Of a DNA stretch of 64,000 nucleotides, positions 32,584 to 60,413 are shown one piece after another. The notes beneath the pieces were generated by a model that searched no databases, was not told the origin of the DNA, and was given only the letters and a program-made list of their open reading frames with translations. The stretch's first letter is position 1, and the number at the start of each line of letters is the position of its first letter. The DNA comes from Escherichia phage vB_Eco_mar004NP2: sequence record NC_048205.1, one strand, 5' to 3'. The translations under genes and the position numbers were made by a program.

Positions 32584-34341
32584 ATGGGTTTTTTCGCTGG
32601 AAAGTATAGCGATGGTAAGACCGTACTATCTTTAAATACTGAATCTGGGGGTGACATTAATCGTCACTATAGTCCAAGTAATAATAGTATTTTTCATAGT
32701 GATATGCCATTTGTTCTAGTTGAGGGTACTTATGAGGCAGGATTAGGTGATGCCGGGAATGGGTTTTTCGTATGTCAGATGCCTCCTGATATAGTAAATA
32801 TTAAATCTAATGATCCTGGTAGAGTTATACTAACTGCTATTGAGATTAATGGTACTCACAGAGCTTTTCTTAATGGTACTCAGAGTAAAGTTGGTCAAAC
32901 TATAGTTGCCACTCAAGCAGACCCCTTTAGATCTTTTGCTAGTGTTTCTCAAACCAGTGGATTTGCATTTGGTAATAGTCTAGCATCTGGAACTTATAAT
33001 TATAACCCATCGATAGGGCACGAAGAATCTATCTCTAGGAGTGGTACAGGTGGTACTACGTTACATAGTACCTACCATGGGATAGTTAGGCCTGGTGCGG
33101 GAGCTCCTGTAGGTGTTACTGTTGCAGAAGCCTTTGCACAATTAGGTTTTCCTACTAATAGTAGCACAGTACCTGTAGATGGGAATAACCCGTACTATTG
33201 GGATCCTGGATGGATGTCGCCTCTAGGAGCAGCACATAGAGGGCATGATTGGTTTTATGTTTGCAACTCTAATATACGTGGATACGGTGGGGTTAGACAA
33301 GGGCTCCCAGGTAATGTAAATACTATGTACCACGACGGTGGGAACAGATTTGTTTGTAGGGGATCTACTACTAATTTAGCTAACCAGTCGGGTGACTCTA
33401 CAATACTACAGGATTGGTATAATATAACCCCTACTAAGGTTATTTGGTATGTTCTTAATTTAAGGTACTCTAATGGTGGAATGAGTATTTCAGGCAACCC
33501 CTTTACTGGTTCTGATATTCTTATATCTCCTTCTAATTTCATAATTAAAGGGGTAAGTCTCCCTAATACCGGGTATAAATTTATAAATCAGAATGCTTTT
33601 GGTAACCTAGGTTACCGTCCTGATATGGAGTATATAGGAAATAACGCAGCGTATACCGGGGTTTTTGGGGATACCACGGCAAGGTGTGAACTTGTAGGGT
33701 CTAGTAATGGAGGATTATGGTCTCCTGTAGACTATGGTGGAGCTAAATCCCAAATTAGCATTTACAAATTCGGAGCTGGTAAGCAATGGTATGTAAACTC
33801 TAGGGATAATACTATCGGTAATGAACACGGGGTTGTTTGGGGACCATCAGCAGTTCCATTACGACTTTTTGGTGGAAATGTAGGTAGCTCTTACATGGGG
33901 GATGATATTACTCCCAGCTACCCGGGAACAGGGGATAGATACGTTGGTTTATCAACTATTGGGCTAGGTATACCGGGTGGCAATGCTACAGTAATTCTTA
34001 CCACTGAAGTTATATCAGGTAACCTTAACTGTGCAGGTGTTCCTGCTAATACATGGAATAACGGTGTGTTTCAAGTGCAAGGAAGAAGAGCATATAGCTA
34101 TAGTAATGGAGATGCAATATTCCACCAGATTTTAACATTACCAGTAGGGTATTTAGTACCTTTTCATACTACATCTGCTTTTAGGTACACACCTAACAAT
34201 GCCCTAAGTAGAAATAGTTTTATATATACTGCTAAAAATCTGGGGAATGGAAATGTAGAGTTAGGGGTAGTTATGCACGTAAGTTTAGGTAGTGCAGTTT
34301 TCCTACCGAGATTAAGAGTAACAGTTCAACGCCTTACCTAA
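32584..34341 (+). CDS. receptor-binding tail protein (pb5-like), 585 aa
   Basis: position between llp and terminase as in T5; Gly/Asn/Ser-rich. Confidence 0.5.
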
Positions 34342-34351
34342 AGGAGGAAAT

Positions 34352-34834
34352 ATGGCAAATGATGTATTAGTACCAGATCTTATGTCCCCTGAAGGGATGG
34401 ATGTAATTGAAGCATATTTACAGTGTGGCAGCGATGTGCCTTCTGCCGCACGTAGTCTTGGGATGTCCGAAATTGCTTTTCGAGATATTATGAATCGTAG
34501 TGAAGTTAAGAACTACTTAAATGATATTTTTATGGAGAGTGGTTTCCGTAACAGAGATCGTTTATTTGGTGTTCTGGATGAAGTTATCAAGCGTAAACTA
34601 GAGGAACTAGAAGAAACTGGCATGGGTTCTGACCAAGATATTATGGATATTCTCTGGAAAGCACATAAAATGAAAATGGAAGAAATGAAAATGATGGTAG
34701 AACTGGAGAAAGTGAAGGCAGCAGCCCGTACTCCAGCTAACCAGACCAACATCCAGAATAATATTATTGCTGGAGCTGGGGATCAAAACTACATGGACTT
34801 AATTACTTCCCTAGCTACTGGAGGTAAGAAGTAA
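34352..34834 (+). CDS. terS: terminase small subunit (putative)
   Basis: 160 aa, immediately upstream of and coupled to terminase large subunit. Confidence 0.45.
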
Positions 34835-36150
34835 TGGAAGTATCAAGACCTTACGTTAATACAGTAGATGTTATTGATTTCGGAATAGATAAACGTTTCT
34901 TTCGTCTACCTGTTTCGGGAATACTAGCACAAGAAGGTATTACACCTAATGGTCCTCAAATAGCGATTATTAATGCTCTAGAGGATCCTAGACATCGTTT
35001 TGTAACGGCGTGTGTATCACGCCGTGTAGGTAAATCCTTCATCGCATATACTCTTGGGTTCCTAAAATTGCTGGAACCTAATGTGAAGGTGTTAGTAGTT
35101 GCTCCTAACTATTCACTGGCCAACATCGGATGGTCTCAGATTCGTGGTCTTATTAAAAAATATGGCCTACAAACTGAACGTGAGAACGCTAAAGATAAGG
35201 AAATTGAGTTAGCTAATGGTTCTCTGTTTAAACTAGCTTCCGCTGCTCAGGCTGACTCCGCGGTTGGACGTTCATATGATTTTATCATCTTTGACGAGGC
35301 GGCAATTTCCGATGTGGGTGGTGATGCCTTCAGGGTTCAGCTGCGTCCTACTCTAGATAAACCTAATTCTAAGGCTCTATTTATTTCCACACCTCGTGGA
35401 GGTAACTGGTTTAAAGAGTTTTACGCCTACGGATTTGATGATACGTTGCCTAACTGGGTATCTATTCATGGTACATATCGTGATAACCCTCGTGCTGACC
35501 TGAATGATATAGAAGAAGCACGTCGTACGGTTAGTAAAAACTACTTCCGCCAGGAATATGAAGCTGACTTCTCTGTATTTGAAGGTCAGATTTTTGATAC
35601 TTTCAATGCTATTGACCATGTTAAAGACCTTAAGGGTATGCGTCATTTCTTTAAAGATGATGAAGCATTCGAAACGTTGCTTGGTATCGACGTTGGTTAT
35701 CGTGATCCTACAGCAGTTCTTACTATTAAGTATCATTACGATACGGATACTTACTATGTATTAGAAGAGTATCAGCAGGCGGAGAAAACTACAGCTCAGC
35801 ATGCTGCTTACATTCAGCACTGTATAGATCGTTATAAAGTTGATCGTATTTTTGTTGACTCCGCGGCAGCTCAGTTCCGTCAAGACTTAGCTTATGAGCA
35901 TGAAATTGCATCAGCTCCAGCTAAAAAATCTGTCCTAGATGGCCTAGCATGCCTGCAAGCACTGTTCCAACAGGGTAAGATTATTGTAGATGCCTCATGC
36001 TCCTCCTTAATTCATGCACTGCAGAACTATAAGTGGGACTTCCAAGAAGGTGAAGAGAAATTATCACGTGAAAAACCACGTCATGATGCTAATTCTCACC
36101 TTTGTGATGCGCTGCGCTATGGAATTTACTCTATTTCCCGTGGTAAATAA
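34834..36150 (+). CDS. terL: terminase large subunit
   Basis: Walker A-like VSRRVGKS, Walker B IIFDEAA, C-terminal nuclease region; 438 aa. Confidence 0.8.
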   Translation: MEVSRPYVNTVDVIDFGIDKRFFRLPVSGILAQEGITPNGPQIAIINALEDPRHRFVTACVSRRVGKSFIAYTLGFLKLLEPNVKVLVVAPNYSLANIGWSQIRGLIKKYGLQTERENAKDKEIELANGSLFKLASAAQADSAVGRSYDFIIFDEAAISDVGGDAFRVQLRPTLDKPNSKALFISTPRGGNWFKEFYAYGFDDTLPNWVSIHGTYRDNPRADLNDIEEARRTVSKNYFRQEYEADFSVFEGQIFDTFNAIDHVKDLKGMRHFFKDDEAFETLLGIDVGYRDPTAVLTIKYHYDTDTYYVLEEYQQAEKTTAQHAAYIQHCIDRYKVDRIFVDSAAAQFRQDLAYEHEIASAPAKKSVLDGLACLQALFQQGKIIVDASCSSLIHALQNYKWDFQEGEEKLSREKPRHDANSHLCDALRYGIYSISRGK

Positions 36151-36321
36151 ATAAGTATAGGATGGGATACTACTCAGTTGGTATCCCATTCCTGCATTTT
36201 AAAATCCCCTTTACAAATTCGATACGATTATGTATACTATATTCATTGATCGGGAGAACTTCTCCCATAATAGAACGTAAACAAGAAAAATTAATGCTCT
36301 ACATGGGGTGTAGGAGATTCT

Positions 36322-36995
36322 ATGGGTCGACAAAAGCTAACAATAAAAGATATAAATATTAGATTAGCTGATCGTGGAATCCAAATTGTCGGTGAGTATG
36401 TAAACCAACGTACAAAAACAGTATTTAAATGCCAGAGAGCACATGTTTGGGAAGCAACACACATTCTATACTCCATATGGGGAGAGGTTGTCCACACTGC
36501 TCCAATAATACAATATCGTTAGATGAAGTTAATAACAGAATATCTAATATAGGGTATACTCTGTTAAGCAGCTATACTAATGCTAAAACAAAACTACATC
36601 TACGCTGCAATAAGGGGCATGACTGTTTACTTACCTTAGATGGATTGACTCAAGGTAAGAGATGTCCTTATTGTTCTCTTAAGTGGGAGAATGGCGGATT
36701 CCTCTATATCATGTCCTCCTCTAGTGGTACTAAAGTAGGCATAAGCTTATACCCTGAGAAACGGCTGAATGAAGTTAAAAGAGAATCTGGATTTTCTGAC
36801 CTATACTTGTTCACCATGTATCATCTGCCAGATAGAGAGACTGCTTTAGATTTAGAAAAGGAAGTTCACAGAGAATATTATAATAAAAACTGTGGGTTTT
36901 CTAATTTTACAGGAAGCACGGAATTTTTTAATGTTGCTCCTGAGGATATAGTAATCTTTCTAAGTAGCTTTGGATTGGAGGATTATGGCCACTAA
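36322..36995 (+). pseudogene. homing-endonuclease-like gene split by a -1 frameshift at TGGGG (36478-36482)
   Basis: frame-1 ORF 36322..36522 and frame-3 ORF 36429..36995 join into a tandem repeat K..KC...H....T......G..CP.C only if ribosome slips -1 at the G-run. Confidence 0.45.
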
Positions 36996-37422
36996 TACTA
37001 AGTACAAACGTGATGCCATTTCCATAATGAGGGATGGTATAAAATCTAGGTATAGTAAGGATGGTTGCTGTGCTATATGTGGTAGTAGTGAAGACCTAGA
37101 ACTTCACCATTATCATACTATATCTCAGCTAATAAAAAAATTTGCTAAAGAACTCCAGCTGGATTTCACTGATGAGAATATCGTCCTTTCAAATAGGGAA
37201 GCATTCTACAAGAAATATGAGCATGAGTTAGTTAGGGACGTGGTAACATTGTGCCAGCACCATCACCAATTATTACATAAGGTTTACACAAAAGAACCTC
37301 CTTTATTTTCTGCTAATAAGCAAAAAGCGTGGGTTCAAAAGCAGAAAGACAAATTACAGAATCCTCAAGAAAAGACACAAGTCAAGACTGAAACAAAATC
37401 AGGATTCGCAAGGTTCTTATAA
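36970..37422 (+). CDS. HNH endonuclease
   Basis: CAICGSSEDLELHHYH ... LCQHHHQLLH motif; between terminase and portal. Confidence 0.6.
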   Translation: MDWRIMATNTKYKRDAISIMRDGIKSRYSKDGCCAICGSSEDLELHHYHTISQLIKKFAKELQLDFTDENIVLSNREAFYKKYEHELVRDVVTLCQHHHQLLHKVYTKEPPLFSANKQKAWVQKQKDKLQNPQEKTQVKTETKSGFARFL

Positions 37423-38633
37423 TGGGTTTAAAAAGCTGGATTACTGAAAAGTTAAATCCGGGTCAACGTATTATAAGAGACATGGAACCAGTTAGTCATC
37501 GCACTAACCGTAAGCCTTTTACCACTGGACAAGCCTACAGTAAAATTGAGATTCTCAATAGAACTGCTAATATGGTTATAGATAGTGCGGCGGAGTGTTC
37601 TTATACTGTCGGAGATAAATATAATATTGTTACGTACGCTAATGGCGTCAAAACAAAGACTCTAGACACTCTCTTAAATGTACGACCTAATCCATTCATG
37701 GATATAAGCACATTCCGTAGACTTGTAGTCACTGACCTACTTTTTGAAGGTTGTGCATACATCTATTGGGATGGCACATCGCTTTACCATGTCCCGGCTG
37801 CTCTTATGCAGGTCGAGGCAGATGCCAATAAGTTTATCAAAAAGTTTATATTTAATAATCAGATAGACTATCGCGTAGATGAGATTATCTTTATAAAGGA
37901 TAACAGTTACGTGTGTGGCACAAATTCTCAAATTTCTGGACAATCTCGTGTTGCTACTGTTATTGATTCTCTTGAAAAGCGTTCTAAGATGCTTAACTTT
38001 AAAGAGAAATTCCTAGATAACGGAACCGTGATTGGTCTTATTCTTGAGACGGATGAAATCCTGAACAAGAAATTGCGTGAGCGTAAACAAGAAGAATTAC
38101 AACTCGATTATAATCCTAGTACTGGTCAGTCTTCTGTCCTGATTCTAGATGGTGGTATGAAAGCTAAACCGTACTCCCAAATATCCTCTTTTAAAGATCT
38201 AGACTTTAAGGAAGACATTGAAGGATTTAATAAATCTATCTGTCTAGCCTTTGGTGTTCCGCAAGTGTTGCTTGATGGGGGTAATAATGCGAACATTCGA
38301 CCAAACATCGAACTGTTCTATTATATGACTATCATTCCTATGCTGAACAAACTGACTAGTTCTCTTACTTTCTTTTTTGGTTATAAGATCACTCCGAATA
38401 CTAAGGAAGTCGCAGCATTAACACCAGATAAAGAAGCAGAGGCTAAACATTTAACCTCATTGGTTAATAATGGTATTATAACCGGTAACGAAGCTCGTTC
38501 AGAGCTGAACCTTGAACCTTTAGATGATGAGCAGATGAATAAGATCCGTATTCCTGCTAACGTCGCTGGTTCTGCAACAGGTGTATCTGGTCAAGAAGGT
38601 GGTAGACCCAAGAGTTCCACCGAGGGAGATTAA
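37422..38633 (+). CDS. portal protein
   Basis: 403 aa, position after terminase, ATGA coupling; size matches T5 portal. Confidence 0.65.
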   Translation: MGLKSWITEKLNPGQRIIRDMEPVSHRTNRKPFTTGQAYSKIEILNRTANMVIDSAAECSYTVGDKYNIVTYANGVKTKTLDTLLNVRPNPFMDISTFRRLVVTDLLFEGCAYIYWDGTSLYHVPAALMQVEADANKFIKKFIFNNQIDYRVDEIIFIKDNSYVCGTNSQISGQSRVATVIDSLEKRSKMLNFKEKFLDNGTVIGLILETDEILNKKLRERKQEELQLDYNPSTGQSSVLILDGGMKAKPYSQISSFKDLDFKEDIEGFNKSICLAFGVPQVLLDGGNNANIRPNIELFYYMTIIPMLNKLTSSLTFFFGYKITPNTKEVAALTPDKEAEAKHLTSLVNNGIITGNEARSELNLEPLDDEQMNKIRIPANVAGSATGVSGQEGGRPKSSTEGD

Positions 38634-43005: not shown

Positions 43006-44415
43006 ATGTCTTTACAACTATTACGTAATACTCGAATCTTCGTGTCTACGGTTAAGACTGGTCATAATAAGACCAACACGCAAGAGATTCTAGTTCAGGA
43101 TGATATTTCTTGGGGTCAGGACAGTAACTCAACAGATATTACTGTTAATGAAGCTGGTCCGCGTCCAACTCGTGGTTCTAAACGTTTTAATGACTCTTTA
43201 AACGCGGCTGAGTGGAGTTTCTCTACTTATATCCTGCCATATAAAGATAAAACTACTAACAAACAGATTGTCCCTGACTATATGTTATGGCATGCTCTTT
43301 CTAGCGGTAAAGCTCTTAACCTAGAAGGTGATACAGGAGCACATAATAACGAAACCAATTTTATGGTTAACTTTAAAGATAACGCGTACCACGAACTGGC
43401 AATGCTGCATATCTACATCCTGACTGACAAAGCATGGAGTTACATCGACTCTTGCCAGATCAACCAGGCAGAAGTTAACGTTGATATTGAGGATATTGGT
43501 CGTGTAACTTGGTCAGGTAATGGTAACCAGCTTATTCCTTTGGATGAGCAACCATTTGATCCTGATACTGTAGGTATTGATGATGAAACTTATATGACTA
43601 TTCAGAGTTCTTATATCAAGAACAAATTGACTATCCTGAAAATTAAGGATATGGATTCTGATAAGGCATATGATATCCCTATTACTGGAGGTACTTTCAC
43701 CATTAATAACAATATTACGTACCTAACCCCCAATATTATGTCCCGTGTAAATATTCCGATCGGTTCATTTACTGGTGCGTTTGAACTAACTGGTTCTCTG
43801 ACAGCTTACCTTAATGATAAAGCTCTAGGATCTATGGAGCTATATAAAGATCTAATTAAAACTCTTAAGGTAGTTAACAAGTTTGAAGTTGCACTTATCC
43901 TTGGTGGTGAATATGATGATGAACGTCCGGCAGCTGTGTTAGTTGCTAAACAGGCGCATGTTAATATTCCTACTATTGAGACTGATGATGTACTTGGTAC
44001 TTCAGTAGAGTTTAAAGCTATCCCTACAGATCTGGATACTGGTGATGAAGGTTATCTTGGTTTTTCTAACAAGTATACTAAAACCACTGTGGCTAATCTG
44101 ATTGCTACAGGAGATGGCGCTAAAACTCCACCAAAACTAGTTGAATCAATCACAGTTAAATCAGCTGGTAATGTCACTTCAGTGGAGAATAGCAATACTC
44201 TACAGATGTCTGTTGAAGTAACTCCGCCAGATGCTACTAATAGTGCTGTAACTTGGTCTATTTCTAGCGGTGATGCAGCTACAATTGATCCAGAATCTGG
44301 TCTATTAACTGCGGATACTACTAAGACTGGAGAAGTTACTGTGAAAGCTGTAGCTAAAGACGGTTCTGGTGTAGAAGGTACTAAGAGCATTACAGTTACT
44401 GGTTCTGGTGGCTAA
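43006..44415 (+). CDS. tail tube protein (pb6-like) with C-terminal Ig-like domain
   Basis: 469 aa; C-terminal Ig-like segment NTLQMSVEVTPPDATNSAVTWSISSGDAATI...VTVKAVAKDGSG. Confidence 0.6.
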   Translation: MSLQLLRNTRIFVSTVKTGHNKTNTQEILVQDDISWGQDSNSTDITVNEAGPRPTRGSKRFNDSLNAAEWSFSTYILPYKDKTTNKQIVPDYMLWHALSSGKALNLEGDTGAHNNETNFMVNFKDNAYHELAMLHIYILTDKAWSYIDSCQINQAEVNVDIEDIGRVTWSGNGNQLIPLDEQPFDPDTVGIDDETYMTIQSSYIKNKLTILKIKDMDSDKAYDIPITGGTFTINNNITYLTPNIMSRVNIPIGSFTGAFELTGSLTAYLNDKALGSMELYKDLIKTLKVVNKFEVALILGGEYDDERPAAVLVAKQAHVNIPTIETDDVLGTSVEFKAIPTDLDTGDEGYLGFSNKYTKTTVANLIATGDGAKTPPKLVESITVKSAGNVTSVENSNTLQMSVEVTPPDATNSAVTWSISSGDAATIDPESGLLTADTTKTGEVTVKAVAKDGSGVEGTKSITVTGSGG

Positions 44416-44419
44416 TTAA

Positions 44420-45322
44420 ATGTACTACTCTCTAATGAGAGAGTCAAAAGTTATAGTTGAGTATGATGGTAGGGCATTTCATTTTGATGCCCTATCAAAC
44501 TATGATATACAGACTTCCTACGAGGAATTCAAGACTCTTCGTAGGACTGTTCATCGTAGAACTAACTATGCAGACTCTATTATAAATGCTCAAACCCCCT
44601 CTTCTATCTCTCTAGCAGTAAATTTCAGTAATACTCTTACGGAGGCTAACTTCTTTGAATGGTTAGGTTTTGATAGAAAAGGTAATACTTTCTTACTCCC
44701 ACTATATAGTAATAATATTGAACCTATTATGTTTAATATCTATATAGTAAATAAAGATAATAACTGTGTATATTTTGAAAACTGCTATGTATCTACAGTA
44801 GATTTTTCTTTAGATAAGAACATACCAATTCTTAATGTTGGTATTGAGTCTGGGAAATTCTCAGAAGTATCTACCTATAGAGAAGCAGCTTCTATTATAC
44901 AGGGTGAAGTAATGTCTTACAGCCCAGTAATAGCTTCTACTAATGGCAGCATCTTACCCGGTCTTATTTCTGCCTCTTTATCTTTCCAGCAGCAGTGCTC
45001 TTGGAGAGAGGATAAGAGTGTTTTTGATATAAATAAAATTTATAATAATAAAAGAGCCTATGTAACTGAAATGAATGCTTCGGCAACCCTTTCTTTGTAT
45101 TACTTAAAACGTTTTGCAGGGGATATGGTTTATAATATAGAACCGGAGACAGATGTACCTTTAAATATAAGAAATAATAATATTTCTATAGATTTTCCTT
45201 CAGCACGTATTACAAAACGCCTAGATTTCTCAGATGTGTATAGAGTTGAGTGGGATATTATACCTACTGCTTCCTCAGACCCAGTGAGAATAGATTTCTT
45301 TGGAGAAATTAAAAATGATTAA
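44420..45322 (+). CDS. tail-associated structural protein, 300 aa
   Basis: synteny between tube and chaperone genes. Confidence 0.4.
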   Translation: MYYSLMRESKVIVEYDGRAFHFDALSNYDIQTSYEEFKTLRRTVHRRTNYADSIINAQTPSSISLAVNFSNTLTEANFFEWLGFDRKGNTFLLPLYSNNIEPIMFNIYIVNKDNNCVYFENCYVSTVDFSLDKNIPILNVGIESGKFSEVSTYREAASIIQGEVMSYSPVIASTNGSILPGLISASLSFQQQCSWREDKSVFDINKIYNNKRAYVTEMNASATLSLYYLKRFAGDMVYNIEPETDVPLNIRNNNISIDFPSARITKRLDFSDVYRVEWDIIPTASSDPVRIDFFGEIKND

Positions 45323-45719
45323 TTTAAAAGATATTACTCTTGATACTCGTACTATTACTCTTTCCTACCCAGGTATGCCGAACTTTAAACTAGAACTTAA
45401 CTATATGTCTCGTGCTACCTCTAAACGTGTTATTTCTTCTGCTAAACGCGATGAATGGGTTAATGGTACTTTGATTCAGGTACAGGATGATGATAAGTTC
45501 ATTGAAGCCTTCGTTGACGCAGCTATTAAAGGTTGGACCGGTTTGACTGTAGGTGACGTTGAAAAACTGATGCTGATTGAAACAGATGCTGATCCTGCTA
45601 CTGAAGTTCCTTTTAGCCGCGATAATGCTGTAATGCTCATGCAGAACTCTGCTGCGTTTGACTCTTGGATCAACCAGACAGTGTTCCACTTAGACACTTT
45701 TCGTAGCCCAAAAGCGTAA
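45300..45719 (+). CDS. tail assembly chaperone (putative)
   Basis: small acidic protein upstream of tape measure gene. Confidence 0.4.
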   Translation: MEKLKMINLKDITLDTRTITLSYPGMPNFKLELNYMSRATSKRVISSAKRDEWVNGTLIQVQDDDKFIEAFVDAAIKGWTGLTVGDVEKLMLIETDADPATEVPFSRDNAVMLMQNSAAFDSWINQTVFHLDTFRSPKA

Positions 45720-45780
45720 AGAACTCCTAGATGCTGTTGCTGATTTTGCAGATAAATGTATTAAAAGCTCAGCATCTAAA

Positions 45781-46149
45781 ATGACCAAACAACAATATTT
45801 AATACTTTGTGAGTCAATGGGTATAGAACCTGATCCTAAGGCTATGCCTGTTGAGCTTGAAGATTTTCCACCTATTGTAGCTATTAGTATGAATATTTAT
45901 AATAGTCTAGTTGACTGTTTCATACCTGGTGACTTTCCTATCTTTATAGGTAAAGATAAAGCTGCTCTAGGTGTTTTATTTGATATTTATGGGATTACCG
46001 ATCCTATAGAAAAAGAATTTGTTCTACACATTATCAATATATTTGATGCTAAAGCTGTAGACGCTGCACGTAAACGTGCCGAGAAGCATAAACCGCAAAA
46101 CGGAAGAATACCTAACGTTAAGCCACATGCTAGATCTCGGGCGCGATAA
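45781..46149 (+). CDS. tail assembly protein (putative), 122 aa
   Basis: position immediately upstream of tape measure gene. Confidence 0.4.
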   Translation: MTKQQYLILCESMGIEPDPKAMPVELEDFPPIVAISMNIYNSLVDCFIPGDFPIFIGKDKAALGVLFDIYGITDPIEKEFVLHIINIFDAKAVDAARKRAEKHKPQNGRIPNVKPHARSRAR

Positions 46150-46181
46150 AAGTTTCCTCCAATGGGCGTTCCACGATGAGG

Positions 46182-46215
46182 CTTGGCTCTGGGTGATTTG
46201 CCCAGAGCCTTTTTT
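46182..46215 (+). terminator. rho-independent terminator-like hairpin before tape measure gene
   Basis: GGCTCTGGG-TGATTTG-CCCAGAGCC plus TTTTTT. Confidence 0.6.
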
Positions 46216-46232
46216 ATTGGGAAAAATAAAAT

Positions 46233-49200
46233 ATGACTGATAAGCTAATACGAGAATTACTGATAGACGTTAAACAGAAGGGGGCAACTCGTACTGCAAA
46301 GTCTATTGAAAACGTATCTGATGCATTAGAGAATGCTGCTGCGGCTTCTGAGCTAACGAATGAACAGTTAGGTAAAATGCCCAAAACTCTATACTCCATT
46401 GAGAGAGCAGCAGACAGGGCAGCAAAAAGTCTTACTAAAATGCAAGCTAGTAGGGGTATGGCTGGTATCACTAAATCCATTGATGGTATTGGTGATAAGC
46501 TAGATTACCTGGCTATCCAACTTATTGAAGTAACAGATAAGCTAGAAATTGGATTCGACGGAGTTTCTAGATCTGTTAAAACAATGGGCAATGATGTTGC
46601 AGCTGCAACAGAGAAAGTTCAAGATAGATTGTATGACACCAATAGAGTTTTAGGCGGTACAACTAGAGGTTTTAATGACACTGCAGGTGCCGCTGGTAGA
46701 GCTTCTAGAGCTATTGGTAATACTTCTGGTTCGGCACGTGGGGCTACCCGTGATTTTGCAGCAATGGCTAAGATCGGTGGTAGTTTACCTATTATGTATG
46801 CAGCTCTTGCTTCCAACATCTTCGTTTTGCAATCTGCATTCGAACAACTTAAGTTAGGTGATCAGCTAAATCGTCTAGAAAAATTTGGTGTTATAGTAGG
46901 TACTCAGACAGGTACTCCTGTTCAGTCTCTTGCTAGATCACTACAAGAAGCTGCCGGATATGCTATCTCCTTTGAAGAAGCAATGAGACAAGCATCCTCT
47001 GCTTCTGCGTACGGATTTGATGCTGAACAACTTAATAAATTTGGTCTAGTAGCTCGTCGTGCTGCTGCTGTTCTTGGCGTTGATATGACTGATGCACTTA
47101 ACCGTGTAATTAAGGGTGTATCTAAACAAGAAATCGAACTTCTGGATGAACTTGGTGTTACTATTCGTCTTAATGACGCATATGCTGATTACGTTAAACA
47201 GTTGAATGCTGCAAACACAGGTATAACATATAATATTAATAGCCTTACTACCTTCCAGAAACAGCAAGCGTATGCTAATGCTGTTATAGCAGAGTCTACT
47301 AAACGTTTTGGTTACTTAGATGAAGTTTTACGTGCTACTCCGTGGGAGCAGTTTGCCGCTAATGCTGATGCCGCACTGAGAAAGATTCAGCAGGCTGCTG
47401 CTAAGTATTTAGGGCCGGTAATTGATGCTATCAACACAGTATTTTATACTTCTCAGGCTTCTATATCTGCTGAAGCAGCTAGAGCTCAAGAAAAAACCAA
47501 TAGACAGATAGATCCTACCAACGTTGGTGCTGTTGCTTTAAGTTTGGCCGCTTCTGAAGAAGGCTATAATAAAGCTCTAGATATGTACAAGGAATCTCTT
47601 GATAAGCGTAATAAGCTAAAATCCGAATTCGATAAACGAATGGAGCAAGCGGATTTCTATACAAGATTAGCCATACGTCAAGTTGGTGAAGGTATTCCTG
47701 TTGGTCTTGCTGCTGCTGGTGCTTCCGAAGCTAATAAAAAGTTCGTAGAAGAAACTGCGGCTATGGGTCTACAAGTAACCAGACTAGGTAAGGAAGTAGA
47801 AGATTCTACTGAAAACCTTAATGCTTGGAAGTCAGCCTATCAAGCTGCGGGTGCTGCTGCTGCAAAAGCTAATCCAGAGTTTCAGAAACAGATTAATCTA
47901 CAGAGAGATACTACTGATCCTGGTGCTGTATATGACTTTAACTCCACAGTATTAAAAGGACTAACTGAACAACAGAAAGCATATAATCAAACTAAGAAAA
48001 CTGCTAGTGACTTAGCTAATGATATACAGAACGTTGCTCAGAATACAGATACTGCTGCTAAAACTAGTGCTACTTTAGCAGATGCTATAAAAAACATAGA
48101 ATCTCTATCCTTAGGCACTGGTAAGAGTGCCGATGAGTATGTTAAAAACCTTAACCTGGGCTATAACACACTGTCTGAAATGAAAACTGCATCTCAGGCT
48201 CTATCTGAGTATGTTAAACTAACTGGTAATGAAACTAAAAATCAGTTAGCAGTTCAACAGAAAATAGCTGATGTGTACAACCAAACTAAGGATAAGGAAA
48301 AGGCTCAGGAAGCGGGTAGACGTTTAGAGTTGCAACAGTTAGAAGAGCAAGAAGCTGCTTTACGCCGTGTTCTTCAAACAAACCAGGGAAATAAAGCTGT
48401 TGAGAAAGAAATTGAAAAAATTCAGCTGGAGAAACTTAGACTTACCAATCAGGGTATGGAAGCCCAGAAGAAGGTCAAGGATTACACAGATAAAATTCTT
48501 GGTGTAGATCGTGAGATAGCTCTCCTGAATGACCGTACTATGACTACTACTCAATATAGATTAGCTCAGCTAAAACTAGAACTAACTGTAGAGAAAGAGA
48601 AGTACGAATGGTATACAAAACAAGCGGACAAACAGAAAGAGGCGGAACAGTCTAGACGTGCGCAAGCACAAATAAGCCGGGAGTTATGGGAAGCGGAGAA
48701 GCAGGCAACTGCCTCACATGTATCAGCTCTCATGGATGCACTAGAAGTCAGCCAAACACAAAGAAATGTTACTGGCCAAGCTCAGATTCTTACGGAAAGA
48801 TTATCTGTTTTGCAAGAACAGCTAGAACTATCTAAGGGCAATACCGAAGAAGAGATCAAGTATCGTAATGAGATCTATAAAACTGCTGCTGCTCTAGAGC
48901 AACTTAGAAAGCAAAGAGAAGGCCAAATGCAGCAACAGGTAGGATCTTCTGTGGGTGCTGTGTACACTCCTACAACTGGACTATCTGGGGAAGACAAAGA
49001 TTTTGCAGATATGCAAAATAGAATGGCTTCTTATGATCAGGCAATCTCTAAGCTATCTGAATTAAATTCTGAAGCAACCGCTGTGGCTCAAAGTATGGGT
49101 AACTTAACTAACGCTATGATTCAGTTCTCTCAGGGATCCTTAGATACTACCTCCTTGATTGCTTCTGGCATGCAAACTGTATCTTCTATGATTCAGTATA

Positions 49201-58643: not shown

Positions 58644-60413
58644 ATGGTAACTAAAACAGTAATTCCTACGGATATTACAAAACTTAAAAATGAGTCACTT
58701 AATAAAAATAATAACCTGAGTGACTTAGCAGACCGTGCAGCAGCATGGCTAAATGTGCGTCCTATTGGATCTACCCCTCTTGCTGGAGATCCTGTTAGTG
58801 ACTATGATGCCGCAACTAAGCGTTGGGTGGAGAACAAACTTAATACTGGCACAGTAGGACCCACAATGAATGGTGTTATGAACTACGGGGTGGGGGATTT
58901 TCATCTTCGAGATAGCCGTGCGTATATTCAACCTTATGAGGTAGTTTCTGATGGGCAGCTTCTTAACAGGGCTGACTGGCCTGAACTTTGGGCGTATGCA
59001 CAAATGGTTGGAGCTATAGATGATTCAGTTTGGTTAGCAGATGTAGGACAACGTGGGAAATATTCTACGGGAGATGGTACCACTACTTTCCGCGTCCCAG
59101 ATCGTAATGGTGTGCAACTAAATTCAATCAAAGGGTTATTCGCTCGTGGTGACGGTGGGGGGGATGCTGGTCAAGCTGGTTCAATATCAGAAGCTGCAGC
59201 ACCCAATATTACTGGTAGTTTTCCTGGCGCTATTGCTGGTGCATATGAAGAAGCGCTTAATAGATATTCATCTAGATTTGGTCTTATTGGGGCGATTGGT
59301 GGTGAAAACGGCTTAGGTGCCGCTCCTGGAGGTGCATCTAAATCATTCGCCGTAGTTAATCCTGATAACCAATACGGATTTAGTTTTGATGCAAACTTAG
59401 CGGACCCTGTTTATGGGCGTTATGGAATAAAAGGTACTATTATTCCAAACAGCTTTATAGGTGTCTGGGTAATCCGTGCTTCTGGTGGGTTCGTGGCTGC
59501 AAAGACTTCGTGGAGTGTTATTAGTGGTGATGCTGTCAAACCTAATACTGGTACTACTGTTTATGGCGGGAGTGTACTATCTGAGTATAAAGTAGGTACT
59601 AGTAGTGAGGCTGTAAGTACACTACGAGCTAAAGCTACTATTGGTGGCACCTACTCTACTGAACTACTAATAGACAATAAATCTACCGGTAAATCGAATT
59701 CCGCCCAGCTTGTAGATAATGGGGATTTTGTAACGGATCGTTTTAAAGCTAGATTAGTTACTGGCATGGCGTGGTCTCAGACTGGCTGGGTACAAGGTAC
59801 TCTTTCTCAGAACGAGGTCAATATAGGTAGTACATTTAACTTTAATAGTATATTGAGCGGTTCCCAGTCTTCTTCCGCAGGGTATAAGACATCTGCACAT
59901 TTTGGATTAATTCATAATGACTTAGGCTCATTTGCAGATTCTTGTTGGCAGGTAGCGGGAGATGATGATAATAAATTTGGTGTGCGTTTAAAAATTCAGC
60001 CGAATAATAATAGTATTTATTTTTATTCTTGGTGGCCAGGTGCTTCAGCAACCTATACTTTGCAATTAAATGCTGTATCTGATTCTCGCTTAAAGCATGA
60101 TATTAAGGCTATAGACGCAACTAAGTCCATCGAGGTATTAAAAGGATTAGAATTCCAATCCTTTGTATATAATAACGATGAAAAATCTCGTGTCCGACGT
60201 GGGGTTATTGCTCAGCAAGTAGAGACTATAGAACCACTTTATGTAAAAACTAGAAAATTTTATAATGATGACGGAATAGAGCAGGAGCAAAAGGAATTAG
60301 ATACAACTCCAATGCTTCTTGACACTATGCATGTTGTGCAAGATCTTATTAAACGGATTGAAGATCTAGAGAAAGAGCTTGAGCAATTAAAGGTACAATT
60401 AGTATCACAATAA
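58644..60413 (+). CDS. L-shaped tail fibre protein B with C-terminal intramolecular chaperone (S74-like autoproteolytic) domain
   Basis: C-terminal LQLNAVSDSRLKHDIKAID...LEFQSFVYN motif typical of self-cleaving fibre chaperone domains, followed by coiled coil. Confidence 0.6.
   Translation: MVTKTVIPTDITKLKNESLNKNNNLSDLADRAAAWLNVRPIGSTPLAGDPVSDYDAATKRWVENKLNTGTVGPTMNGVMNYGVGDFHLRDSRAYIQPYEVVSDGQLLNRADWPELWAYAQMVGAIDDSVWLADVGQRGKYSTGDGTTTFRVPDRNGVQLNSIKGLFARGDGGGDAGQAGSISEAAAPNITGSFPGAIAGAYEEALNRYSSRFGLIGAIGGENGLGAAPGGASKSFAVVNPDNQYGFSFDANLADPVYGRYGIKGTIIPNSFIGVWVIRASGGFVAAKTSWSVISGDAVKPNTGTTVYGGSVLSEYKVGTSSEAVSTLRAKATIGGTYSTELLIDNKSTGKSNSAQLVDNGDFVTDRFKARLVTGMAWSQTGWVQGTLSQNEVNIGSTFNFNSILSGSQSSSAGYKTSAHFGLIHNDLGSFADSCWQVAGDDDNKFGVRLKIQPNNNSIYFYSWWPGASATYTLQLNAVSDSRLKHDIKAIDATKSIEVLKGLEFQSFVYNNDEKSRVRRGVIAQQVETIEPLYVKTRKFYNDDGIEQEQKELDTTPMLLDTMHVVQDLIKRIEDLEKELEQLKVQLVSQ

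Follow-up and report, generated by a model that had tools for sequence, protein, structure and literature searches.

The DNA analysed here, referred to as the window, comprises 64,000 nucleotides of the genome of Escherichia phage vB_Eco_mar004NP2 (NC_048205.1; record of 109,181 bp). This is a T5-like phage (Tequintavirus), and the region considered below is its module for packaging and head formation. The genes follow each other in the order receptor-binding protein (585 aa), terminase small subunit, terminase large subunit (terL, 34834-36150), a gene split over two reading frames (36322-36995), a 145-aa gene (36985-37422), portal (37422-38633), decoration protein, prohead protease and major capsid protein. 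This order agrees with a first-pass annotation, made from the sequence alone, which had placed a split endonuclease-like gene between the terminase and the portal.

The two open reading frames on which that annotation was built, 36322..36522 (66 aa) and 36429..36995 (188 aa), are present in the window sequence, overlapping and in different frames, as is the TGGGG run at 36478-36482 at which they had been proposed to be joined. The first open reading frame (ORF1) is preceded by a strong ribosome-binding site (AGGAG, 36312-36316) and is identical with the annotated protein MAR004NP2_00141 (VCU43535.1 / YP_009824654.1), while the 188-aa frame, which starts at the ATG at 36429, corresponds to no record in an exact-protein look-up. 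Gene callers predict instead a 172-aa ORF from an internal ATG at 36477, the codon for Met53 of the ancestral protein; this ORF is MAR004NP2_00142, which already bears the RefSeq name 'homing endonuclease'. No Shine-Dalgarno sequence precedes the ATG at 36477 in the upstream window sequence. A tblastn search with the restored protein identified no paralogs within the 64-kb window.

The split gene is embedded in a compact arrangement of signals (Table 1). The terminase large subunit gene terminates just before a terminator-like hairpin, and the terminator-like sequence is shared with phiLLS and GreteKellenberger, the loci of which are devoid of the split gene, as well as with DT57C and SPLA5b. 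At the other end, the last codons of the cassette that contains the split gene supply the ribosome-binding site (GGAGGA) of the subsequent gene, sciA, which overlaps the stop of the endonuclease gene by 11 nt.

Table 1. Features between the terminase large subunit and portal genes, with coordinates in the window
Feature	Position	Strand	Details
Terminator-like hairpin and T-run	36160..36201 (hairpin 36160-36191)	+	13-pair stem, then CTGCATTTTA
Sigma-70-like promoter	36210..36238	+	TTTACA, 17 nt, TATACT; 10/12 matches
Homing-endonuclease cassette	36247..36984	+	~738 nt; inserted between promoter and sciA start
ORF1	36322..36522	+	66 aa: native codons 1-46 (36322-36459) and 20 out-of-frame residues, then premature stop
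Zinc-finger module 1	36337..36503	+	residues 6-61; ligands C37, H41, C57, C60; Pfam DUF4379 residues 29-62
1-nt deletion	36459..36461	+	codon 47 CCA (Pro), one C lost; AACACCACATT becomes AACACACATT
Rest of ancestral frame	36462..36995	+	codons 48-224 and stop; no longer in frame with the start codon
TGGGG run	36478..36482	+	not the lesion; within ancestral codons ATG GGG (Met53 Gly54)
Zinc-finger module 2	36513..36677	+	residues 65-119; Pfam CapR residues 78-119, E=2.7e-10
T5orf172 / MUG113 nuclease domain (GIY-YIG superfamily)	36696..36953	+	residues 126-211
sciA-type T5 nicking endonuclease (HNH-like)	36985..37422	+	145 aa; intact
Divergent sciA 5' tract	36985..37284	+	300 nt, codons 1-100; 63-82% identity to the gene-less allele

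Position of the frame break and domains of the restored protein

The frame break had been attributed to a -1 slip at TGGGG, a proposal which the alignment with intact relatives contradicts by placing the lesion elsewhere. Four intact relatives of 675 nt possess one C more than the window within codon 47, in the context GCAACA[C]CACATT, approximately 20 nt upstream of TGGGG, and a 42-kb alignment with SPLA5b opens its gap at 36460. Consistently, tblastn of the restored protein against the window finds residues 1-46 in frame 1 and residues 45-224 in frame 3, with the switch near residues 45-46. The ancestral peptide around the break reads …WEATPHSILHMGRGCPHC…, and the junction peptide THILYSIW-GRGCPHC (…WEATHILYSIW-GRGCPHC) suggested previously is not the ancestral one, which is TPHSILHMGRGCPHC.

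The G-run itself is an unremarkable part of the intact gene. In SPLA5b and AKFV33 it is a GGGG of the same length as in the window and in SP15, 3sent1 and T5 a GAGG, all within intact genes, such that what was taken for a slip site simply encodes Met-Gly or Met-Arg there; T5.154 of phage T5 reads HMRRGCPHC at this position. The zinc-finger models discriminate between the two ways to join the frames, as the restored protein scores 40.7 bits against CapR and 35.9 bits against DUF4379 versus 29.7 and 27.2 bits, respectively, for the fusion by slippage at the G4 run. A comparison of orthologous loci, proposed as a check by the first-pass annotation, substantiates that the gene is split in the window and speaks against a lesion at the G-run: among 50,697 phage records, 72 of the 72 full-length orthologs measure 675 nt, versus 674 nt in the window, and encode the protein in a single frame. 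Judged from these alignments, the G4 run 20 nt downstream of the deletion has no part in the frame break, and the length of the G-run in raw reads, which the first-pass annotation had put forward as a refuting test, concerns the wrong bases. More generally, where two ORFs overlap is no guide to the site of a lesion, and a homopolymer within the overlap can be a red herring.

The restored 224-aa protein displays 96% identity with T5.154 and matches PHROG 681 'endonuclease' with E=8e-60. That its N-terminal half is an internal duplication, as noticed at first inspection, is confirmed by BLASTP of the two halves (E=3e-10, 29% identity over 56 aa) and by Pfam, where CapR and DUF4379 each match in two stretches (DUF4379 with E=8.9e-9 in the restored protein). 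Each zinc-finger module is approximately 56 aa long and of the CapR / DUF4379 treble-clef type, and the CapR zinc finger has been reported to bind DNA (PMC8096241). The deletion splits module 1, of which ORF1 retains only the ligands C37 and H41.

The C-terminal domain, originally described as catalytic-looking, can now be named: it scores 34.4 bits for T5orf172 and 35.9 bits for MUG113, above the curated Pfam cut-offs of 20 bits (PF10544) and 22.3 bits (PF13455), and the unrestored 188-aa ORF of the window contains it too. The motifs 'FLYIM...KVGIS...R...E' are readable in the sequence and provide candidates for the catalytic Tyr, Arg and Glu of a GIY-YIG-like fold. A sequence search of the PDB with the restored endonuclease gave no significant match, and the single-sequence AlphaFold2 model of the 172-aa ORF (mean pLDDT 49) is too poor for the fold to be read. 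With zinc-finger modules located N-terminal to the nuclease domain, the protein has the architecture of T5orf172 homing endonucleases, the genes of which have been characterized by repeated CapR/DUF zinc fingers, are most often located near terminase genes (35% of neighbourhoods) and are abundant in T5-like phages while being 'unstable due to frameshifts' (PMC10448857). T5-like genomes also harbour paralogs of about 35% identity at other sites, which are annotated as homing endonucleases.

The cassette, its empty sites and the linked sciA allele

Homology of the window to phiLLS and GreteKellenberger ends at 36246 and restarts at approximately 36984-37000. Before this boundary, both loci share with the window the terL stop, the hairpin and the predicted late promoter. 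In these gene-less loci the promoter region runs straight into the ribosome-binding site and start of sciA, and the loci span 1,381 nt versus the 2,101-nt query, with about 720 nt missing and the matches covering 64-65% of the query in two pieces. The position of the predicted promoter suggests that it drives sciA directly in the gene-less phages, while in the window it is located upstream of the cassette. The cassette is missing from most T5-like records in the sampled ranking, where terL adjoins sciA; 72 records contain the full gene and about 14 a remnant, for 86 carriers in all. In the DT57C-type remnant the start codon ATG has been altered to ACG, the middle part has diverged and the nuclease domain has been deleted, and such phages combine the remnant with the gene-linked sciA allele. 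Compared at the sequence level, the decay in the DT57C lineage is independent of the 1-nt deletion in the window.

The gene directly downstream had been recognized as an HNH endonuclease gene, and its kind is affirmed and refined by a PDB match to a nicking endonuclease. Its product is near-identical to the 'Nicking endonuclease' of PDB entries 9qgv/9qgx (E=1e-95), with two positions that differ: the second His of LELHH is Q or A in the crystals, presumably a mutation of the catalytic site, and L124 is I. No paper on 9qgv was found. The product belongs to the precomputed Pfam family PF26848 Phage_T5_Nicking_endo and to PHROG 3497, with a weaker match to an HNH PHROG, while a search against the local Pfam copy gave nothing significant; the annotators of DT57C label the gene sciA. 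Among the genes which classical genetics tied to the site-specific single-strand nicks of T5 DNA is sciA (reviewed in PMC3517423).

The 5' part of sciA differs strikingly between loci with and without the cassette. Relative to phiLLS, 80 nucleotide differences occur in codons 1-100 versus a single one in codons 101-146, with flanks that are 93-98% identical on the terL side and 98-100% identical from 37285 onward. Across the database the tract is bimodal, with 85 records at 80% identity or above versus 445 at 60-80%; the 85 records with a close tract approximate the 86 carriers of gene or remnant, an agreement matched by number, not by accession. The divergent tract is presumed to be a co-converted or cleavage-immune region. 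Given this linkage of cassette and tract, T5.154-type endonucleases could home into sciA and thereby drive replacement of the allele of the nicking enzyme.

Of the explanations that had initially been offered, the one borne out by the deletion site, the domains and the cassette polymorphism is that a homing-endonuclease insertion was recently inactivated by mutation. We consider it probable, at roughly 0.85, that the split gene is a T5.154-ortholog homing-endonuclease gene which was recently pseudogenised by a genuine 1-nt deletion in codon 47. The terL-sciA locus bears the usual footprints of a free-standing homing endonuclease: among close relatives the cassette is present or absent at one site beside a conserved gene, a divergent flank that is presumably co-converted or immune is linked to it, and separate lineages have acquired inactivating lesions of their own. 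The intact enzyme would cut the gene-less sciA allele within or near its 5' part, the cassette would then be copied in by recombinational repair, and the divergent sciA tract would act as the immune, co-converted flank. In mar004NP2, the shifted frame leads translation to stop at 36522 after half a zinc finger and before the nuclease domain; the drive would have been lost because translation from AGGAG ends there. Loss of function would be selectively neutral to the phage, in keeping with the late stage of a homing-endonuclease life cycle. The pseudogene has acquired no second lesion and may have residual function.

The closest known counterparts are T5.154 (YP_006982.1, 'endonuclease, similar to YomD') and its Tequintavirus orthologs, which occupy the same terL-sciA/portal locus and possess the same domains. 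They have been annotated as orf155 in AKFV33, as 'putative homing endonuclease' in IrisVonRoten and as 'T5orf172 domain-containing protein' in 3sent1; compared to T5.154, the copy in the window has the 1-nt deletion and is annotated as ORFs of 66 and 172 aa. The RefSeq model of T5.154 comprises 277 aa, as it includes 53 codons upstream of the start that is annotated for the 224-aa gene elsewhere. No published nuclease activity or homing was found for T5.154 or a close ortholog.

Beyond the T5 group, the T5orf172 homing endonuclease genes of ICP1 and other phages (Barth, Dunham and Seed 2023, PMC10448857) equally combine N-terminal zinc-finger repeats with a C-terminal T5orf172 domain, and share with the locus described here the terminase neighbour, the variable presence, the inactivation by frameshift and the sharp boundary of divergence. 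The phage in the window is from a different family (Demerecviridae). The CapR protein of the PLE satellite (Netter et al. 2021, PMC8096241), which lacks a nuclease domain, acts as a repressor. The free-standing Seg proteins of T4 and I-TevI, the biochemical model of the class, resemble the T5.154 type in the combination of a GIY-YIG-superfamily nuclease with modular DNA-binding domains, in the intergenic site next to an essential or conserved gene, in the tract of co-conversion or immunity in the neighbouring gene and in terminal degeneration; however, they carry the nuclease at the N-terminus and the T5.154 type at the C-terminus, and their DNA-binding module is a helix-turn-helix, where the T5.154 type has treble-clef zinc fingers. 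A frameshifted copy is, in light of the literature on the T5orf172 family, ordinary decay of an already known kind.

With respect to annotation, MAR004NP2_00141 and MAR004NP2_00142 are to be treated as one disrupted gene. The terL-sciA interval offers a natural series of empty site, intact gene, frameshifted gene, deleted remnant and linked sciA allele, which is useful for testing homing by T5orf172 endonucleases and their target in T5-like phages.

Alternative readings of the frameshifted allele

Pseudogenisation has to be weighed against a gene that is split without being dead, with internal initiation at Met53 or re-initiation giving rise to a 172-aa nuclease of altered or relaxed specificity. 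The 172-aa ORF is open, with neither zinc-finger module 2 nor the nuclease domain lost from it. At least two genomes that are not identical have kept the allele free of further lesions, and T5orf172 homing endonuclease alleles with a single finger are known in ICP1 (gp174*, PMC10448857). However, the ATG at 36477 is without a Shine-Dalgarno sequence and the stop of ORF1 (36520-36522) is located 43 nt downstream of it, a poor geometry for coupled re-initiation, while a start at this ATG would cut into zinc finger 1 and leave the product with an orphaned CPHC knuckle. Persistence, moreover, is accounted for by recent common descent, as no more than 2 differences separate the two carriers once the receptor-binding protein gene is set aside. 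An active split gene is therefore unlikely. Equally improbable is the related proposition that the frameshifted allele does not decay but is kept up through low-level Met53 initiation or rare recoding, and provides a single-zinc-finger T5orf172 nuclease with changed targets; if true, the maintained allele would represent a naturally 're-specified' homing endonuclease.

A second possibility is that the deletion does not exist in the phage, which would then carry an intact gene of 675 nt. A single missing base is the commonest type of assembly error, and a homopolymer sequencing error had been among the explanations put forward at the outset; the lesion, however, is situated in a CC dinucleotide and not in a homopolymer, the assembly is clean and the product recurs in other sequencing runs. 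The mar004NP2 genome was obtained from MiSeq 2x250 reads with SPAdes in careful mode, with a new assembly made from a subsample of the reads wherever coverage exceeded 100x (PMC6563131). Over 42 kb the window is 99.84% identical to SPLA5b with only 3 indels, of which one is a 2-nt difference in an intergenic AT repeat, one an in-frame 3-nt difference in a G-run and the third the codon-47 deletion as the sole frame-breaking one, a census which rules out pervasive sequencing noise.

The distribution of the allele speaks for both sides. It occurs in none of 17 near-identical records of the phage database, all of which carry the extra C, nor among IMG/VR sequences, where 6 copies of the intact allele are present, and the JGI metagenomes gave no match, a rarity that would be expected of an artefact. 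An exact-protein look-up in Logan, ENA and NCBI, the sole search by which the allele was found, nevertheless turned up 10 contigs that encode precisely this 66-aa frameshift product, among them contigs assembled by Logan from runs ERR5898690, ERR5898691 and SRR33937443, and as this product includes the out-of-frame tail, the same deletion is required in each. The contigs of ERR5898690 and ERR5898691 are 100% identical to the window and could derive from re-sequencing of the same stock. The SRR33937443 contig, on the other hand, still shows the deletion although it differs from the window at 51 of 5,535 positions, of which the receptor-binding protein gene accounts for 49 and terL and the endonuclease gene for 1 each, and from this it follows that the allele has been inherited by at least two non-identical genomes; contigs assembled by Logan from a mixed sample could be chimeric. 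No paper on ERR5898690/1 or SRR33937443 was found.

An intact gene is also present in OR896837.1, a record named after the same species, which would favour an artefact if it were a re-sequencing of mar004NP2. This was rejected, as its identity to the window is only about 99% overall and 94% in one gap-free block; on this comparison OR896837.1 is treated as a different isolate. Independent assembly of the same product, including from the strain with 51 differing positions, renders an artefact very unlikely, and the deletion, as judged from assembled sequences, is to be regarded as a genuine mutation.

A programmed frameshift had likewise been suggested; in the -1 direction, at TGGGG or elsewhere in 36429-36520, it would provide regulated low-level synthesis of the 224-aa endonuclease with junction peptides …EATHILYSIWGRGCPHC…. 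Single-frame orthologs, the missing heptamer and the missing RNA structure after the G-run dispose of it. The ORFs overlap by 94 nt in a -1 relationship, chemistry would permit tRNA-Gly to slip from GGA to GGG, and the fusion retains all four zinc ligands at unchanged length. Against this, the two-frame arrangement is not conserved and a frameshift is needed by 0 of the 72 full-length orthologs, all single-frame, the G-run is an ordinary codon pair that is itself not conserved (GAGG in T5, SP15 and 3sent1), and the fusion falls below the restored protein on the zinc-finger models. The overlap 36429-36520 contains no X XXY YYZ heptamer, and the fold of the 88 nt after the G-run (36483-36570) is not more stable than shuffled sequence (z=0.16).

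The established account of -1 slippage is the tandem-slippage model; at TGG GGA, the P-site tRNA-Trp would, from the codons involved, be unable to re-pair in the -1 frame (UGG to AUG). The programmed -1 systems of the tail assembly chaperone G/GT, dnaX and the transposases of IS elements have in common with the window the overlapping ORFs in a 0/-1 relationship, but the window is without their slippery heptamer, stimulatory structure and conserved split, and the orthologs are single ORFs. Such a frameshift is extremely unlikely, and recoding as a designed feature is effectively excluded, while a trace of spontaneous slippage may occur.

Decay states of the endonuclease gene

The endonuclease gene is found in a second, independent decay state in phage DT57C, with the same state recurring in Gostya9, DT571/2, SA001, smaug and others. 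In this copy the ATG start codon has become ACG and the nuclease domain is deleted; codons 2-48 are identical, and the middle section is only ~70% identical, as if it derived from another allele. The similarity to the window ends a few bases from the window's own deletion site. The interval between terL and the portal gene in Salmonella phage Kenya-K20 measures 1,530 nt, an intermediate length that exceeds the 1,381 nt of the empty site by ~150 nt and falls short of the occupied site, so the cassette may exist here in a third remnant state.

Coordinates of the features discussed
Feature	Record	Position
Receptor-binding protein gene, divergent part	window	33336-33954
Palindrome GGGAGAACTTCTCCC	window	36252-36266
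sciA 5' tract (codons 1-100)	window	36985-37284
Recombination boundary in sciA	window	~37285
Mosaic segment	window	44401-48673
Tail-fibre gene G-run	window	59157-59164
T5.154, RefSeq model (L007)	T5, NC_005859.1	5774-6607
Degraded endonuclease gene (L014)	DT57C, NC_027356.1	2501-2843
terL-portal interval (H189)	Kenya-K20, OQ291032.1	100421-101950

Allele classes of the nickase gene sciA

Within Demerecviridae, the 5' part of sciA, up to a recombination boundary, falls into two sharply separate allele classes, with an identity to the window of at least 80% in 85 records and of 60-80% in 445. The minority class matches in size the set of records in which the T5orf172 endonuclease gene, or a remnant of it, lies upstream. 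This agreement, a comparison made by counts, suggests that sciA serves as the homing target and immunity tract.

Start codon and 5' edge of the cassette

The RefSeq model of T5.154 encodes 277 aa from a start codon 11 nt past the terL stop, and the gene as annotated in other records encodes 224 aa. Since the start of the shorter frame follows the terminator and promoter and is preceded by a strong ribosome-binding site, the T5 RefSeq start is probably over-extended by 53 codons. Five nucleotides within the 5' edge of the cassette, after the shared promoter and before the ribosome-binding site of the endonuclease gene, lies the 15-bp palindrome GGGAGAACTTCTCCC, which is not present in the gene-less loci and may act as an operator for autoregulation in the style of I-TevI or form a transcript hairpin.

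Variation elsewhere among close relatives

Compared with OR896837.1, the tail-tube, chaperone and tape-measure region contains a gap-free block of just 94.2% identity between flanks of ~99% and is a mosaic segment. The phage in sequencing run SRR33937443 is otherwise near-identical to the window, with only two substitutions across the 4.9 kb that follow, but its receptor-binding protein gene differs by 49 substitutions clustered in a stretch of ~620 nt, which looks like a recombinant receptor-binding allele. In the tail-fibre gene, a G-run varies among close relatives in steps of 3 nt (the window has G7, SPLA5b G10 and OR896837.1 G13), an in-frame poly-glycine length polymorphism.
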